Shown: positions 36,001-42,000, counted from the stretch's first letter. The stretch is DNA of 64,000 bases from an uncultured Pseudomonadota bacterium (GCA_964429275.1 CAYSBJ010000002.1:176245-240244), one strand, 5' to 3'. A program made the numbers.

Positions 36001-39000
36001 CGGTATCGCCCCTTGCGCGGTATGCGTCAGCCGAACGTTGTACGCTTCCCCACGAGCCAGCGCAGCCATTACCTGAGTTGCGCGATGTTTGGTTAGTACT
36101 TGGCGTTGCTGGATGTGCCTGGTTATTCTTGGCGCTGGCAAGTTTTAATGCGCAAGATTCTTCTTTTTTTACTATGGTCTTGCCGGCAACTGCGGTTACC
36201 AATTGGTGCGGCGCGCTCGGTGCTCACTGCGCAGCTTGGCTTTTTGTGGTTGCTGGTCCGGCGGCATGGGTTTTGGTAGCAATGTTTTTAAAAGCACTTT
36301 TTGTGCGCTCTGATAAACGGGTGGCCTACTATGTAATACAATTACTGTCCGGCAGCGTTATTATTAGCTCACTTGCTGTGTTGAGTTCAGTTTTTCATGT
36401 TGGTGTTGCAGGTGGTGGTATTGTTGGTAATGCACTATCTGCCTATTTGAGCGGCATTGGTGCGGTGGGTACCGGGCTCCTTGCAGGTACCACATTGTTC
36501 TTTTCTTCGCTTGTGTTTGTTCGGTTGACACTTCGTCAGTTTGTGTATGGTATTACAACGACCCTTTCATATGGATTTTATGGTATTTCATTAACATGGT
36601 ACTTTTTGCGTACTGGCATTACACATTTGTGGCCGCGCTCTGCAGATGCGTATGATAAGATGCCACCGCAACCCCCGGTGAGGCCGGCAACGCAAGAGCG
36701 GGTGCGTGAGCAAGATGTGTATCATATTCCTGATGTTGACCCAATTCCGGCCGGTGCTCATTGCCCACTTGGTAAAAAGCCCGAATCATCACAACACATC
36801 GAAATTAGTGACATTGCTGAAGCAAGTGCGCAGCTATCTTCCGCTGCGCCAACTGATGAGTCTTCATTTGCGCCACAAGAAGTGCCGCATGAATCATTTG
36901 TTTTTGATGACGAAGAAGAAGAGGCTGAGGAAGATGCCGTGATGCTTGATGGTTCCGAGCCGAGCAGGGGAGGGGATGCTGCTCAGACTCTTGCCGCAGA
37001 AGGTGAGGATGAGTCTTTAGATGACGAGGATGATGGAGATGAAGAAGCGGGCGACGAAGAAGATGATGACGAGAGTGGCAGTGGCGATGGTGGTGGCGGT
37101 TTTCATGGGGCGAAAGCTGACCAAAGCCTACTTGAAGAAGTAGAGCCCCAGGAGCCACCGTTGCCTTTTGATCTTGCGCCGCTCAATGAAATTTTTGATG
37201 CATGTGGTGCAACGCAACAGGATGAAGCCTTTATGGCGCGATGTCGGGAGCGAGCATCGATTTTAGAGGAAAAACTTACCCACTTCGGGATTACCGGTCG
37301 AGTGCTTAAAATTAAGCCCGGACCGGTAATTACTTTATTTGAGTATGAGCCAGAAGTTGGCACAAAAGTAAGTCGCATCTTGGCTCTTGAAGATGATTTG
37401 GCCCTCAGCTTGAAAGCCCTTAGCATTCGTATTCTTGCTCCTATCCCTGGAGAGTCGGTTGTTGGCTTTGAAATAGCAAACGAAAAAAGAGACTCTGTTA
37501 TGTTTGGTGATCTGATAGGGAAAGAAGGACTTACTGGCTCTCGTGCTCACTTGCCGTTGGCATTGGGGGTCGATATTACAGGCAATCCGGTTATTGCTGA
37601 TTTAGCGACGATGCCACATTTGCTGGTAGCAGGGGCAACTGGTTCTGGAAAATCAGTTGGTATGAACGTAATGCTCGTAAGCTTGCTGGCGCGTGTGACG
37701 CCAGATAAGGTGCGTATGATCCTTATTGACCCAAAACGGCTTGAATTTGCACCATATGCTGACATTCCTCATTTGCTTTTTCCGATTGTGACAAATCCGG
37801 CTGATGTCGGCCCAGTATTGAAATGGGTCGCTGAAGAAATGGAACTCCGCTATGAATTAATGGCACAAGTGGGCGTACGCAACATTGCGGAGTACCATAG
37901 ATTAGATAAATCGATGTGTTTTGCTAAAGAACGGGAAGCTGGGATCCACGTGCATGGTATGCCATACATGGTAATCATGATTGACGAGCTTGCTGATTTG
38001 ATGATGGTTGGTGGTCGAGAGATTGAAACGCTGATTGCCCGTATTGCACAAATGGCGCGTGCTGCTGGCATTCATATGATTGTGGCTACTCAGCGACCAT
38101 CGGTTGACGTGGTAACTGGTTTAATTAAGGCAAATTTCCCGAGCCGTGTTGCGTTCCGCGTTTCAAGCAAAATTGATTCTCGCACAATTCTTGATACATC
38201 CGGAGCCGAAAAGCTTTTGGGGCGCGGCGATATGCTCTATATGAGCCCGAGCAGCATGGGCGGCGTACAGCGCCTTCATGGAGCATACGTTACCGATGCA
38301 GAAATTGACCGATTAACCGACTATTTGAAAGCTCAGCGCCCAGCTTCTTATTTCTCGCTTAAGCAGGTAGTAGCGCAGCATACCGAGAGCGATGACGATT
38401 TGAACGACCCTCTTTATGATGAAGTACGTGAGTTTTTGCTGTCAGTTGATGAAATCTCAATTTCTTTGCTGCAGCGCAAGTATCGCGTGGGCTTTAATCG
38501 TTCGGCCCGTTTAATCGAGATGTTAGAGCGTGACGGCCACGTGGCAGCAGCGCAGGGAGGCAAGCCGCGACGAGTGCTTCGGGATTAACCGCGTTTTTTC
38601 TTGACACTGTTGTGCAATAGCGTAAGCTGTCGTCGTAAATTTATTAGTTGCAAGCAGGAGTTCCTCACTATGCACATTAATGCACTTTTCATAAGTTCAT
38701 TGATTGCCGATTCGTGTTATGTGCGGTTTGATGAGAACGGAAATACCGTTCCTATACCGCTGCACCTTGCAACCGCATCGCTAGTGCCCATCACTCCTCA
38801 TTCTGAGCTTGTGGTTTCCGGAGCTACTTGGTGGAACTTGGATCCGACTATTCCAGACATTTCTGAATCTTTCTTGCAAGCATGCGCAAATGGTGTTTCA
38901 ACTGTGGTTGTTGCCCCGCATCATTACCAGCAGATTATGGCTTTACCGGTAGATGCGTGGAAAAATCTTGAATTTTTAATACTCCCTGATACGCGACAAG

Positions 39001-42000
39001 CATTATTTGAAGCGGCTACTTCCTGGCGCTCACAGTGCTTGGTGCCTATTGTTGCGGTGACTGGGTCGCTTGGTAAAACAACAACGGTTGATATGCTGAC
39101 TGCTATCTTTGCGGTGGACCGCTTACCGGTTTTGATTGTTCCGGCCGGGATCTCTTCGGTAGCTGAACTTGCTATAAAAATGCTGCATATTACAAGCAAG
39201 CATCTTGCGGCAGTATTTGAAGTAGGCACTATGCCCGCTGGTGAAATGCGTCGCTGTGCCGACCTTATGCGGCCGACAATCGCGATTATTACTGCAATTT
39301 GCCCTGCTTATTTGGAAGATAGTGGCGGGCTTGATCATATTGCGAGTGAAAAACAACAGATATTTTCCTATTTTAGCCCAAGCCAAGTTGGTATTGTGTG
39401 CGGCGACTATCCAATGTTGACCTCTCATTTTTACGAACATCCGGTAGTTCGCTTTGGGCTAAAGAATAAAAACGTGGTAACGGCACGTAAGGTAACATTC
39501 TTCCGTGACGAACATGGCATGAATAAAACAAAGCTTGTTCTACGTGTCTATGATTATGAACGTGAAGTAATTTTATCTGGGCACCATCGTGGACTTGTAT
39601 ATGGTGCATTGGCTGCTAGCGCACTCGCGCATTTTTTGTATGTACCGTTTGAAGTCATGGTAAAAGGCCTTGTAGCCTACGTTCCAACAGCCTGTGGATT
39701 GCATCAGTATGCATTGCGCGACGGTCGTGGCATGTTGATGCAAGATTCGCATAGCATCAGCCCTGAAAGTGTTAAAGCATCTTTGCATGCGGTTCATGAG
39801 AGTGGCACACTGCAGTCTCGTAAAATTGCAGTACTTGGTATGATCCCCTATTTGGGTCAGCGTACACCATTTTGGCATCGCCATGTGGGGCGAGAACTCA
39901 TTAAAACACGCAGCATTTCTGATATTGTTTTGGTTGGTGAAGATACCCGTCCAATTCGTGCCGTGGCTCCGGCAACAATGAATATTTGGCTTGCTTCAGA
40001 ATGGAGCGACGTGCAAGGGCAAGTCGAGCGCCTTTTGGCTCCTTCTGACAACGTGCTGCTTATTAGCGGTGCGGCGCCACTTTCTATGAATCGACTTGTT
40101 GCCGAATTGGTGTAGAAACCATCTCTTTTTACTTATTTTTACTTAAATATTGTCATTGCCTGTTTGTTGGCATTAGGATGCGCTTACTATTCAACAAAAC
40201 CCTTTTAAAACCAGGCAGAAGAGAGGTGAAGCATGGCAGAGCGTATAGCGAGCACTACGTTGAGCGATCATGAACGAGGTCTAATAGATACCGTTACCGG
40301 ATTACCTCATAAAATATTGCGATACCATTCCTTGGATGGTTTGTCTCAGATGGTTTTGCATGAGCTTGGCCATGATACGGGCTTTGGTTTTGATCGGGCG
40401 ACCTACTTGGTCGACAACCCAGATTTTGATCATTTGCTTGGGGTTGCAGGGTTTGATCGTCAAGAATGCAGCATGCATAAGAAAAACATTTGGGAGCATC
40501 CTGAAGGTTTTTGCAAAGATATGGAAGCAGCAGCGTTTAACAATAATGTTCGCAGAATCTTAAATAGTAGCGTGGCGCGCAAAGAGGTGAATTTGAACGA
40601 TGCTCATGATGTAAAGGCGCTTGGCTTTGAACTTGGCATTAAAAACCCGCAATTCTTTGCATGGGACATGAAGCATGGCAATCATGGTGTGTTTATCTAT
40701 GAAAAAAATGATAGCATTTGCCTTTGGCGACATGGCTTATTAAAGAATATGAGTTCGTTACTTGGGATGTGTGGACTGCACTAAAAAGCAGACAAATCTT
40801 CTGGTTGTCGTGCTTGCAGGATTGCATTTTCCAGTGTTTGTAAGTCGAGCTCCTTCTTTCCTTGCGCAAGCATCGAATAGATCGTTTGCGCAACCAGTGA
40901 GTCTACTTGCCGTCCAACAAGTCCTTCTAGCTTTTGGCCTAACATTGTTTTCTCATTAATGATATCGGTGTGCAACGTAAAACTATTGTCTAAGATATGT
41001 TGCTTTAGGTACACATCAAGCAAGGCACGCAACTGTTCTTCGCCTGGTACGGAGAAGCGAATGCGGTTTGATGGGTCGATACGGTTGAGAAGCGCTTTGT
41101 CGATGCGATCTGGATAGTTTGTCGACAGAATAAACATCATATTGGTGTTAATAGCCCGTTCAAAGAAGCTGAGCATGGTGGTGGTTAAGTCGTTGGTCAT
41201 TTCATTAGCGTATTGTGAACCGCGGTCTGCAAACATAGTTTCTGCTTCGTCAAACACCAAGATTACCGGCACTTTGCTCTTGCTCGCCCAGCGTAACGTG
41301 TCAGCCAGCGCCGCCTGTGCTTTTGAGGCGCTACCAAGGCGCTTGAGGGCTGGTCCACGAACAATGACGTGATTGGCAAGTTTGTCTTCATAGAGTTTGC
41401 GCGCAAACGCTTGTGCTGCCATTGTTTTTCCGGTTCCCGCTGGTCCGTAGAACAGCATGTTGCTTAATGGCATGTGTTGTTTGAGTGCCAGTGTGAGACC
41501 AGTAAATTTCCCGAGTACTTTTTCTGCCAAACGTGGCTCCAAAATAACATTTTGCAGGTTTGAGGTAGGAACTTTAAAGCCGCGCCATTTCTCAAAGGGA
41601 CTGAGCATCGAAGTATCCGTGCGCTCAATAATAGTGGGTCGTGGTTGGTAGTAGTGACGTGCCGCAAAATAGGTCAAAATAGTGAGCATAACGCCGCCGG
41701 TTCCCAAAAGAAGAGCTTGGCGCTGACGCTTAGTGCCTTCTTCTAAGTCAGCCTTATGTTGGCGTTCAAGGCGGGGGGCATCGGCGATAGTTTTGGCAAT
41801 TTCTCGACGAGTTATCATTTTTTCTTGTGCGCCCATGAACATGGTATCCATATACCCGCCTGCACCTTTTTCTACAAGCCGCAGGTACATATCACCTACT
41901 TTTTCTGCGGTCGCAGGGCTGAGAATACTTTGTTGGCGCTTAATATCAGTAGCCATGGCATTCGAAAAACGGTTTAACATTTCTTTTACGCGTGCCTCGG

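Follow-up and report, generated by a model that had tools for sequence, protein, structure and literature searches.

Why would a bacterium without the genes of murein synthesis keep a ligase of that pathway? The question is raised by a gene next to ftsK in a 64,000-nucleotide stretch of DNA (the window) from an uncultured bacterium, whose genome (G000) is 97.95% complete and assembled into 8 contigs. A preliminary description took the gene for a diverged relative of murF that now performs a new, ATP-dependent ligation in a wall-less family of the Babelales. We asked how far the wall genes are missing, where the ligase comes from, whether it is under selection, and which parts of its active site survive.

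RESULTS

Absence of the murein pathway from the genus

The sampled family comprises six genomes, five from the window's genus and one (G066, 64% complete) from a second genus. Searches of G000 returned no matches to MraY (PF00953), Ddl (PF07478), the transpeptidase (PF00905), FtsW/RodA (PF01098), MurA (PF00275), MurG_C (PF04101) or LpxC (PF03331). The walled genome G010, used as a positive control, gave two matches each to MraY, Ddl, FtsW/RodA and MurG_C, three to the transpeptidase and one to MurA. MraY, Ddl, MurA, MurG, FtsW/RodA and the PBP transpeptidase are also missing from G018 (98% complete), and six-frame searches found MraY, FtsW/RodA, the PBP transpeptidase, MurA and Ddl in none of the five genus genomes, all five of which lack further MurC-F ligases. 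The preliminary description credited G000 with a single Mur-type ligase; there is indeed one Mur_ligase_M match, but "single" needs a qualifier because the genome also carries a FolC-like member of the superfamily at C1:442504-443925, which scores 135.6 bits and so stays below its cut-off of 162.65.

True MreB was not found in G000, which has only partial matches of the FtsA and DnaK types (481 bits in G010), in agreement with its described absence. Of the division and envelope proteins said to have been retained, the searches recovered FtsZ_C in 4 of the 6 family genomes (G000 and G018 among them), an OmpA domain in all 6, and Omp85/BamA in 5. The extension of wall-gene loss to the whole family, however, does not hold: G066 encodes FtsW/RodA (263.6 bits), a MraY-type Glycos_transf_4 (109.7 bits), LpxC (240.9 bits) and a MurC-like ORF. 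The loss therefore applies at the level of the genus (5/5 genomes, two of them 98% complete). LPS loss is described as typical of Babeliales generally in a passage of PMC4776705.

Wall-less genomes also occur in family f17 (G016, G051 and G077) and family f3 (G116), each of which holds walled genera too; relative to these lines, the window's genus is a separate wall-less line, as had been proposed, with taxonomy codes as the basis for the distinction. G116 is the sole genome of 41 in its family with one Mur ligase, which is a canonical MurF. In G016, murF has been cleanly excised from between ftsK and the downstream gene ORF183, and no Mur_ligase_M match is present; G051 has FolC only and no MurC-F-type ligase.

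Origin of the murF-like gene

The murF-like ORF spans 38601..40115 (+), with an ATG at 38670 and a product of 481 amino acids, and the gene lies directly 3' of ftsK, where it had been placed, after a gap of 81 bp (Table 1). The order ftsK-murF-ORF183 or ftsK-murF-rsmH recurs in walled families f2, f7, f11, f12, f15, f17 and f20. The ftsK-murF-ORF183 arrangement is the layout across the order, and by its position the murF-like gene is orthologous to Babelales murF. Phylogenetic analysis nests its product inside Babelales MurF in a well-supported clade (SH-aLRT, 99%), with a long stem leading to the window's genus (0.59) and short branches inside it. Together, synteny and tree uphold its designation as a diverged MurF relative.

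TABLE 1 Features of the ftsK/murF-like/ORF183 locus (positions in the window)
Feature	Position	Strand	Details
ftsK	35967..38588	+	873 aa; Pfam FtsK_4TM, FtsK_alpha, FtsK_SpoIIIE, FtsK_gamma; upstream neighbour
murF-like gene (P0001)	38670..40115	+	Family matches, synteny, tree, dN/dS, fold
N-terminal domain, residues 1-100 (working boundary)	38670..38969	+	L-INS-i alignment
P-loop GSLGKTT, residues 132-138, retained	39063..39083	+	
Tyr214, aligned with the Mg2-site His of Mur ligases	39309..39311	+	
Gly343, aligned with the triphosphate-binding Arg	39696..39698	+	
HSISP, residues 361-365, in place of MurF YNA(N/S)P	39750..39764	+	
GMIPYLG, residues 390-396, in place of MurF GDMxELG	39837..39857	+	
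SGA, residues 466-468, in place of MurF KGS	40065..40073	+	
ORF183	40233..40784	+	183 aa, without Pfam match; conserved neighbour downstream of murF

Family models recognize the protein at reduced scores. Pfam Mur_ligase_M matches residues 130-319 (72.9 bits), and Mur_ligase_C falls under its cut-off (22.9 against 28.4 bits). The NCBIfam murF model TIGR01143 aligns over positions 28-417 of 418 (E = 8e-51), but at 173.3 bits the match misses the curated cut-off of 288.6; weaker NCBIfam matches include FolC, cyanophycin synthetase, MurT and CfbE (E = 2e-5 to 1.6e-3). The structure predicted by AF2 (pLDDT, 94.8) has the three-domain Mur-ligase fold, and its best Foldseek matches are the MurF structures 4qf5, 4qdi, 4ziy, 4cvm, 1gg4 and 3zl8 (TM, 0.75-0.80).

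ORF183 is present in 118 of 121 Babelales genomes, adjoins murF at 14 of 18 retrieved loci, and has a dN/dS of 0.023. The leads to its identity are weak and GAF-like only. A terminator scan across ftsK, the murF-like gene and ORF183 gave no convincing candidate, the scan itself performing at chance level.

Selection on the murF-like gene

Between G000 and G078, the murF-like gene differs at 81 synonymous and 22 non-synonymous sites, yielding an omega of 0.072, against 0.090 for ftsK and 0.063-0.223 for neighbouring genes. A second independent pair, G052 and G036, gave omegas of 0.083 and 0.071. Amino-acid identity between G000 and G018 is 67% for the murF-like protein and 70% for FtsK. Sequences of the genus-level clade carry an intact, full-length ORF even where identity falls to about 50%, and within the genus the C-terminal domain is conserved to the same degree as the central domain (0.61 versus 0.62). 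The gene is not decaying but is under strong purifying selection, in line with the conservation noted in the preliminary description.

Remodelling of the substrate domains

Residues were compared among 17 walled Babelales, 134 other bacteria, the clade containing the murF-like protein (n = 25) and its genus core (n = 12); the clade takes in metagenome-derived members, and the wall-less assignment rests on the genus genomes. In the L-INS-i alignment, the N-terminal signature DSR...G..F.A..G...DGH.F, which we take to be the UDP-sugar-binding signature of MurE and MurF, is missing from G000 and from the whole clade and is present in the walled Babelales and in the three other bacteria aligned. 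In its stead, clade members carry a motif of their own, LAT.SL(L/V)PI...G(G/A)TWW. The N-terminal domain of the G000 protein is 13% identical to those of walled MurFs and lacks the PF01225 match of its walled relatives. Loss of the DSR/DGH signature need not by itself mean that the murein role was lost, since G066 combines an altered N-terminal domain with FtsW/RodA and a MraY-type gene.

The C-terminal changes fall in D(D)xYNA(N/S)P, GDMxELG and KGS, which by analogy with MurD presumably form the site of the incoming D-Ala-D-Ala. Three residues that are nearly invariant elsewhere are absent from all 12 genus core members: Asn362 (17/17 walled, 132/134 other bacteria; Ser in 11 of the 12), Glu394 (17/17 and 130/134) and Lys466 (17/17 and 134/134). 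Ile392 and Pro393, by comparison, are fixed across the genus core. Among 95 positions conserved at 80% or more in 18 reference MurFs, the genus has kept 56, has switched to a new fixed residue at 9, and is variable at 30, and 7 of the 9 switched sites lie in the C-terminal domain. G000 departs from 41 of 98 conserved sites, as opposed to 0-26 in walled genomes.

Erosion of the ATP/acyl-phosphate site

Lys136 of the P-loop, the Mg1 residue Glu184 and the ribose residue Asp359 do not vary across the clade (25/25 members each). Passages of PMC3060825 set out the roles in Mur ligases of the Mg2 His, the triphosphate Arg, the adenine Asn and the carbamoylated Lys, and describe the last as indispensable to MurD, MurE and MurF. 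Lys228 alone of these four is retained in G000, where His, Arg and Asn are replaced by Tyr214, Gly343 and Gly312, making the proposed ATP-dependent ligation doubtful for this genome. His214 is found in 17/17 walled Babelales, 133/134 other bacteria and 15/25 clade members; Arg343 in 17/17, 128/134 and 15/25, respectively, and in 3/12 of the genus core; and Asn312 in 15/17 walled Babelales and 118/134 other bacteria. The carbamoylated Lys is replaced in 9 of the 25 clade members, and every member (25/25) is missing at least one of His214, Lys228, Asn312 and Arg343.

Clade members differ in which of the catalytic-site residues went missing, and the minimum numbers of changes on the tree are 8 for His, 9 for Lys, 6 for Arg and 5 for Asn. 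His, Lys and Arg occur together in 2 of the 12 genus core members (P0006 and P0008) and in 8 of the 25 clade members. Some lineages may therefore still be catalytically active, and, judged from these residues, catalysis may have been lost in the G000/G078/P0002 branch only.

DISCUSSION

The explanation that we favor, with moderate confidence, is exaptation of MurF: the protein has ceased to be a murein ligase and is probably no ligase of any kind, although it may still bind a nucleotide. On this reading the gene is the lineage's own murF, vertically inherited, which stayed between ftsK and ORF183 after the genus lost the murein pathway. The MurF reaction would no longer be performed, because its substrates cannot be made in G000 and the UDP-sugar and D-Ala-D-Ala motifs are gone, and the intact three-domain protein would most likely have been kept for binding. 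The invariant P-loop Lys, Mg1 Glu and ribose Asp suggest that binding of ATP or ADP may persist, and the residues for the second Mg and gamma-phosphate transfer (His, Arg and the adenine Asn, with the carbamoylated Lys in some relatives) have been lost many times over. Other residues have become fixed where the D-Ala-D-Ala pocket used to be, which suggests that the protein has acquired another ligand or a partner protein. The order-wide linkage of murF to ftsK, together with the retention of MurF alone in wall-less G116, points to a possible old second job, so that the retained role may be one that Babelales MurF already had in division or chromosome segregation. It is gene order that suggests this link to division, and G116 may have a canonical MurF simply because it lost its wall recently, with no second function involved.

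It is possible, though we hold this only tentatively, that the protein is instead a re-tooled enzyme, an ATP-dependent ligase or ATPase whose rebuilt N- and C-terminal pockets couple a new amine with a new carboxylate outside murein synthesis. In its favor, selection is strong, and the three invariant nucleotide-site residues are compatible with ATPase or ligase chemistry. The new C-terminal residues are fixed and non-random, the N-terminal domain has its own conserved motif, two genus members retain His, Lys and Arg together, and the superfamily offers precedents in FolC, cyanophycin synthetase, MurT and CfbE. Opposing this are the replacements at Tyr214, Gly343 and Gly312 in G000, the loss of the carbamoylated Lys from over a third of the clade (9/25), and the independent, repeated losses (the tree calls for 8, 6 and 5 changes at His, Arg and Asn, respectively), a pattern such as relaxed constraint on catalysis would leave.

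Exaptation also has to be set against readings in which the protein has no new function. That the gene is a slowly decaying relic, functionless and with its destruction still to come, would fit the disappearance of the remaining pathway, the erosion of catalytic and substrate motifs, and the deletion of murF in wall-less G016, but is very unlikely given an omega of about 0.07 in each of two independent pairs, on a par with ftsK, the intact ORF with its confidently predicted fold, and a C-terminal domain as conserved as the central one. An ordinary MurF in a cryptic murein pathway, whose other genes were missed through assembly gaps or extreme divergence, is hardly to be expected: metagenome-assembled genomes can miss genes, and G066 of the same family has FtsW/RodA and a MraY-type gene, but two 98%-complete genomes and three more of the genus lack every marker sought by six-frame search, with the control genome positive, the MurF substrate motifs are gone, and the score lies well under the murF cut-off. 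Scarcely credible is selection at the level of DNA or RNA and not of protein, for instance on operon spacing or on translational coupling of ftsK and ORF183. The gene does sit between two highly conserved same-strand genes, with no convincing terminator between them in a scan at chance level, but such selection would not depress non-synonymous relative to synonymous change (22 versus 81), and the excision in G016 shows that ftsK and ORF183 function without an intervening gene.

Compared with characterized MurF (TIGR01143; PDB 4qf5, 4cvm and 1gg4), the UDP-MurNAc-tripeptide:D-Ala-D-Ala ligase, the murF-like protein agrees in synteny, tree nesting, fold, P-loop, Mg1 Glu and ribose Asp. It differs in lacking DSR/DGH, YNANP, GDMxELG and KGS, in its sub-cut-off TIGR01143 score, in its replaced ATP-site His, Arg and Asn, and in belonging to a genome without Ddl, MurA, MraY or other MurC-F ligases. 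The Mur-ligase fold has been adapted to non-murein ATP-dependent ligations in FolC, cyanophycin synthetase, MurT and CfbE; the murF-like protein matches these far more weakly than it matches murF (E = 8e-51), its gene is of MurF origin by synteny and tree, and the FolC-like gene of G000 is separate.

The closest precedent is plant PAP11, a MurE-like protein that, in the passages of PMC11561172 bearing on it, is a Mur ligase retained in a lineage without the upstream murein enzymes, where it is indispensable and forms a structural part of a different machine, its catalytic activity being left open there. The fold search with the murF-like protein also picked up the PAP11 structure 8r6s_Q, at rank 14 (TMq, 0.58). 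Unlike the MurF-derived protein described here, PAP11 is MurE-derived, eukaryotic and nuclear-encoded, makes contacts through extra C-terminal folds, and has a known partner. Within the Dependentiae, passages of PMC4378268 and PMC4776705 describe Babela massiliensis, of the Babeliales, as intracellular, without murein genes and MreB, and with FtsZ, FtsA and ZapA. They also report it to be without FtsK, which G000 has, and mention no orphan Mur ligase. If exaptation is the correct reading for the window's genus, a wall enzyme that is kept after its pathway has been lost probably has a different job.

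Results

A divergent MurF between ftsK and ORF183

The gene at the center of this analysis encodes P0001, whose ATG start agrees with full-length relatives of 470 to 482 residues (most of them 480 to 482) that align with it from residue 1. In Pfam searches, P0001 matches Mur_ligase_M over residues 130-319 (72.9 bits) and Mur_ligase_C at 22.9 bits, below the cut-off of 28.4, with no match to an N-domain family. The NCBIfam murF model aligns almost end to end (E = 8e-51), at 173 bits versus a cut-off of 288.6, and other Mur-type NCBIfam models score far lower. The solved proteins nearest in sequence are MurFs (4cvk, E = 6e-23; 4qdi; 4ziy; and 1gg4). 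MurF structures are also the top structural matches (4qf5, TMq 0.78-0.80; 4cvm; 1gg4; and 3zl8) to an AlphaFold2 model built from an 88-row alignment (pLDDT 94.8, pTM 0.91). A promoter and terminator scan of the ftsK-to-ORF183 region (35500-41200) returned counts at the level of shuffled sequence, and a search among RNA sequencing runs listed none that covers 38000-41000.

Features of the window and of related genomes (coordinates without a prefix are those of the window; G000, the window's genome; G066, a genome of the family's second genus; G078, a genome of the window's genus; G116, a wall-less genome of another family)
Feature	Location	Strand	Description
Six Pfam-less paralogous ORFs	21325-35754	-	same-strand array; about 520-680 aa, 27-50% mutually identical
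ABC substrate-binding gene	25571-26545	+	interrupts the paralogue array
AAA-ATPase_like + PDDEXK_9 gene	30530-32128	-	interrupts the paralogue array
ftsK	35967..38588	+	all four FtsK domains; 81 bp upstream of murF-like gene
murF-like gene	38601..40115 (open frame), ATG 38670	+	481 aa (P0001)
ORF183	40233..40784	+	183 aa, Pfam-less; 117 bp downstream of murF-like gene
AAA ATPase	40781-42079	-	432 aa; convergent with ORF183, 4-base overlap at its end
Pfam-less ORF	42090-43958	-	622 aa; next after AAA ATPase
OmpA-like domain ORF	G000:C1:250004-250240		~297 aa
FolC-like ORF	G000:C1:442504-443925		473 aa; TIGR01499 135.6 bits vs cut-off 162.65
MurC-like ORF	G066:C19:37-1431		intact, 465 aa; TIGR01082 238 bits vs cut-off 335; P-loop Lys replaced
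Second MurF-like ORF	G078:C54:91-1410		440 aa; short contig
MurF of G116	G116:C1:1051833-1053086		adjoins rsmH

Gene order and phylogeny agree on the source of this gene. The walled genomes G010 and G054 carry ftsK-murF-rsmH on one strand, and a same-strand ftsK-murF-ORF183 order occurs at nine loci (G020, G071, G095, G088, G027, G014, G093, G111, and G034) from families f7, f12, f15, f17, and f20. Five further loci show murF-ORF183 as far as the contig or the fetched region extends, and at G007 (family f8) ftsK lies on the strand opposite to murF-ORF183. The window's genome and its congener G018 present the order ftsK-murF-like-ORF183, and G116 retains murF-rsmH. In a maximum likelihood tree of 52 rows (IQ-TREE quick mode, with SH-aLRT support only and no bootstraps), P0001 groups with its family and with metagenome kin in a clade of 25 rows (99% support) that is nested inside the Babelales MurFs; the genus of the window sits on a stem of 0.59 changes per site and has short internal branches. 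Because of this gene order and nesting, we regard the murF-like gene as the lineage's own murF, vertically inherited. The tree rules out a horizontal origin, and contamination is ruled out by the location of the gene in the middle of a 392,730-base contig with conserved synteny.

ORF183 itself is encoded by both walled and wall-less Babelales (118 of 121 genomes), usually just downstream of murF. With invariant motifs (DNPDF...G.AG and W.(M)KHGNHG) and a dN/dS of 0.023, it belongs to the conserved core proteins of the order. In a fold search, nothing reached E <= 0.001, and the weak matches were to GAF/LuxR-type ligand-binding folds; a protein-atlas search likewise gave weak leads to GAF. Complex prediction gave no support for pairing between ORF183 and the MurF-like protein, a result that counts neither for nor against an association.

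Loss of murein synthesis in the window's genus and beyond

Six-frame family searches of the window's genome (97.95% complete, 8 contigs) and of G018 (98% complete) recovered one Mur_ligase_M match each, and MraY, Ddl, PBP transpeptidase, FtsW/RodA, MurA, and MurG_C were absent from both, versus 2, 2, 3, 2, 1, and 2 matches, respectively, in the walled control G010. The searches for MraY, FtsW/RodA, transpeptidase, MurA, LpxC, and Ddl were negative in all five genomes of the genus. The window's genome has no true MreB, with only partial matches of the FtsA and DnaK types, versus 481 bits in G010. FtsZ was found in four of these genomes (G000, G018, G036, and G052), and Omp85/BamA was found in five of the six genomes of the family. 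An OmpA-like domain, normally murein binding, is kept in all six family genomes despite the lack of murein genes in the genus.

The preliminary description had extended the loss of murein to the whole family, but it applies to the genus, because G066 carries FtsW/RodA (263.6 bits), an MraY-type transferase (109.7 bits), LpxC (240.9 bits), and a MurC-like ORF. This genome, which is only 64% complete, may have been caught partway through the reduction of its envelope, or its gene set may in part be a binning artefact. The claim of a single Mur-type ligase stands for Mur_ligase_M, with its one match in the window's genome, but not for the superfamily, since a FolC-like member, 49% identical to the FolC of G051 and unreported by the PF08245 genome search, is also there. 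Separately, the second MurF-like ORF of G078 is very divergent (183 bits; 26% identity to P0001), has no counterpart in the window's genome by tblastn at 1e-3, and is possibly a binning artefact.

Nearly all of the 121 sampled genomes of the order have four or five Mur_ligase_M matches; low counts are confined to the window's family and to G016, G077, G051, G116, G103, and G054. Three of these belong to family f17, with no matches in G016 and G077 and one weak match, to FolC, in G051. The closed 1.1-Mb genome of G116 has one match and is alone among 41 genomes of family f3 in having a single Mur ligase, the remaining 40 having 2 to 6 matches. The sole match in G103, which is 84% complete, is a true MurC, so the organism is probably walled and its assembly incomplete; G054, a fragmented assembly of ~190 contigs with two matches, contains the ftsK-murF-rsmH cluster and was counted as walled. 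In six-frame searches, Ddl, transpeptidase, FtsW/RodA, and MurA were all absent from G116 and G016, as were MraY-type matches (G016 has one Glycos_transf_4 match). Families f3 and f17 hold walled genera as well, so the wall would have been lost at least three independent times if the taxonomy codes, used here in place of a species tree, are monophyletic. The murF gene fared differently in these lines: the MurF of G116 retains every canonical motif, whereas in G016 (contig C8, about 1774-3818, with no Mur_ligase_M match) ORF183 directly follows ftsK, and murF was therefore cleanly excised from the ancestral cluster.

Selective constraint and remodelling of the active site

The murF-like gene is under strong purifying selection, and hence a function is required. 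Between G000 and G078, whose copies are 96% identical, there are 81 synonymous and 22 nonsynonymous differences (dS 0.266, dN 0.019; omega 0.072 by the Nei-Gojobori method), compared with omegas of 0.090 for ftsK, 0.063-0.223 for seven other neighbours, and 0.023 for ORF183. An independent pair from the same genus, G052 and G036, gave omegas of 0.083 and 0.071 for the two pieces that could be compared, values that are rough because dS is 1.4-1.9. The low omegas in both pairs rule out a decaying relic. Between G000 and G018, amino acid identity is 67% for P0001, 70% for ftsK, and 28-75% for most other neighbours.

The residues under this constraint are no longer those of a canonical MurF. In Mpl, according to PMC3060825, the equivalent positions contact adenine (Asn, His, and Asn), ribose (Asp), and the triphosphate (P-loop Lys, Arg, and His), and MurD, MurE, and MurF require their carbamoylated Lys for the second Mg. 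Three residues are kept throughout the clade, and the others are replaced to different extents. At least one of His214, Lys228, Asn312, and Arg343 is missing in 25 of 25 clade members, and His, Lys, and Arg are all present in only 2 of 12 genus-core sequences. The minimum numbers of state changes on the tree are 8 for His, 9 for Lys, 5 for Asn312, and 6 for Arg.

Census of catalytic and binding residues in MurF and MurF-like proteins
Residue	Genus core (n = 12)	25-row clade	Walled Babelales (n = 17)	Other bacteria (n = 134)	State in G000
Lys136, Glu184, Asp359	kept	25/25	kept	kept	kept
His214	7/12	15/25	17/17	133/134	Tyr
Lys228	10/12	16/25	17/17	126/134	Lys (kept)
Asn312	0/12	1/25	15/17	118/134	Gly
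Arg343	3/12	15/25	17/17	128/134	Gly
Asn362	0/12	6/25	17/17	132/134	Ser
Glu394	0/12	3/25	17/17	130/134	Tyr
Lys466	0/12	8/25	17/17	134/134	Ser

Eighteen reference MurFs (those of the 17 walled genomes and of G116) share 95 sites with a conservation of 80% or more. Of these, the genus core without the long-branch sequence P0098 (n = 11) keeps 56, varies at 30, and has switched 9 to a new fixed residue. Seven of the nine switches lie in the C-domain (N362S, A363I, M368V, M392I, L393P, V442A, and S468A), the motifs of which presumably belong to the D-Ala-D-Ala site. At the other end of the protein, a separate N-terminal alignment shows the signature DSR...G..F.A..G...DGH.F, which we take to serve UDP binding, in 8 of 8 walled or G116 sequences and in 3 of 3 from other bacteria; it occurs in none of the 16 clade members shown, which instead have LAT.SL(L/V)PI...G(G/A)TWW in common. 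Mean identity within the genus is 0.61 for the C-domain, 0.62 for the central domain, and 0.42 for the N-domain, which is also less conserved in walled genomes (0.35 versus 0.46). Departures from 98 walled-conserved sites number 41 in G000, 33 in G066, and 9 in G116, with a range of 0-26 in walled genomes. Since G066 has an altered N-domain yet retains some envelope genes, the N-domain may have changed before the wall was completely lost.

Discussion

The MurF reaction is excluded for P0001 in the window's genome, since its substrates are absent there and the substrate motifs are gone. The replacements form a pattern in which the nucleotide-binding core is invariant across the clade, residues serving the second Mg and the gamma-phosphate have been lost repeatedly and variously, and the C-terminal pocket has been rebuilt and then fixed. 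The best fit to this pattern is a protein that still binds nucleotide, along with something new, and no longer ligates, a reading to which we give an even chance. The preliminary description favored an enzyme recruited to a non-murein ligation; that P0001 is a retooled ligase or an ATPase is to us a less likely outcome, kept under consideration because a few relatives retain the full catalytic set.

The survival of a canonical MurF alone in G116, set against the deletion of murF in G016, suggests a possible second role for MurF in Babelales, with the order-wide linkage to ftsK as the sole clue to what that role might be. More speculatively, MurF of this order might have a wall-independent job in the ftsK division and segregation module, explaining its sole survival in two independent wall-less lineages, the window's genus and G116, with the protein of the window's genus having become a dedicated nucleotide-binding nonligase with a rebuilt pocket. 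Should this tentative scheme apply, P0001 would provide the first bacterial example of a pseudo-enzyme exapted from a murein ligase, in parallel to plant PAP11.

The closest precedent for P0001 is PAP11, a MurE-like subunit of the plastid RNA polymerase, whose structure is among the fold matches to the P0001 model. According to PMC11561172, PAP11 is retained in seed plants without the upstream murein enzymes and clamps the plastid RNA polymerase, its own catalytic activity being described as undetermined. No published account of a Mur ligase that wall-less bacteria or Dependentiae retain, or have as an orphan, turned up in a literature search whose scope stopped short of supplementary gene tables, which may list the gene, and of most subscription journals. 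The term "murf" occurs 0 times in the main texts of PMC6561590 and PMC4776705, and PMC5814848 has MurF three times, never as an orphan.

Wall loss in Dependentiae was already known from Babela massiliensis, which is reported (PMC4378268) to be without murein genes, MreB/C, and FtsB/K/W/I and to keep FtsZ, FtsA, and ZapA/B. Two further sources describe most LPS genes as missing in Babeliales generally (PMC4776705) and a complete mur pathway in Chromulinavorax (PMC6561590). To this the present comparison adds the various natural fates of a single gene: walled relatives have a canonical MurF; wall-less G116 has a canonical MurF on its own; G066, with its partial envelope gene set, has an intermediate form; the fully wall-less genus of the window has a strongly selected, remodelled MurF; and G016, of another wall-less line, has cleanly excised the gene. 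The annotation "UDP-N-acetylmuramyl pentapeptide synthase," the name given by one source, does not imply murein in these genomes. This series makes the reuse of a murein ligase a testable question, and MurF may hold an overlooked second role beside FtsK in Babelales.
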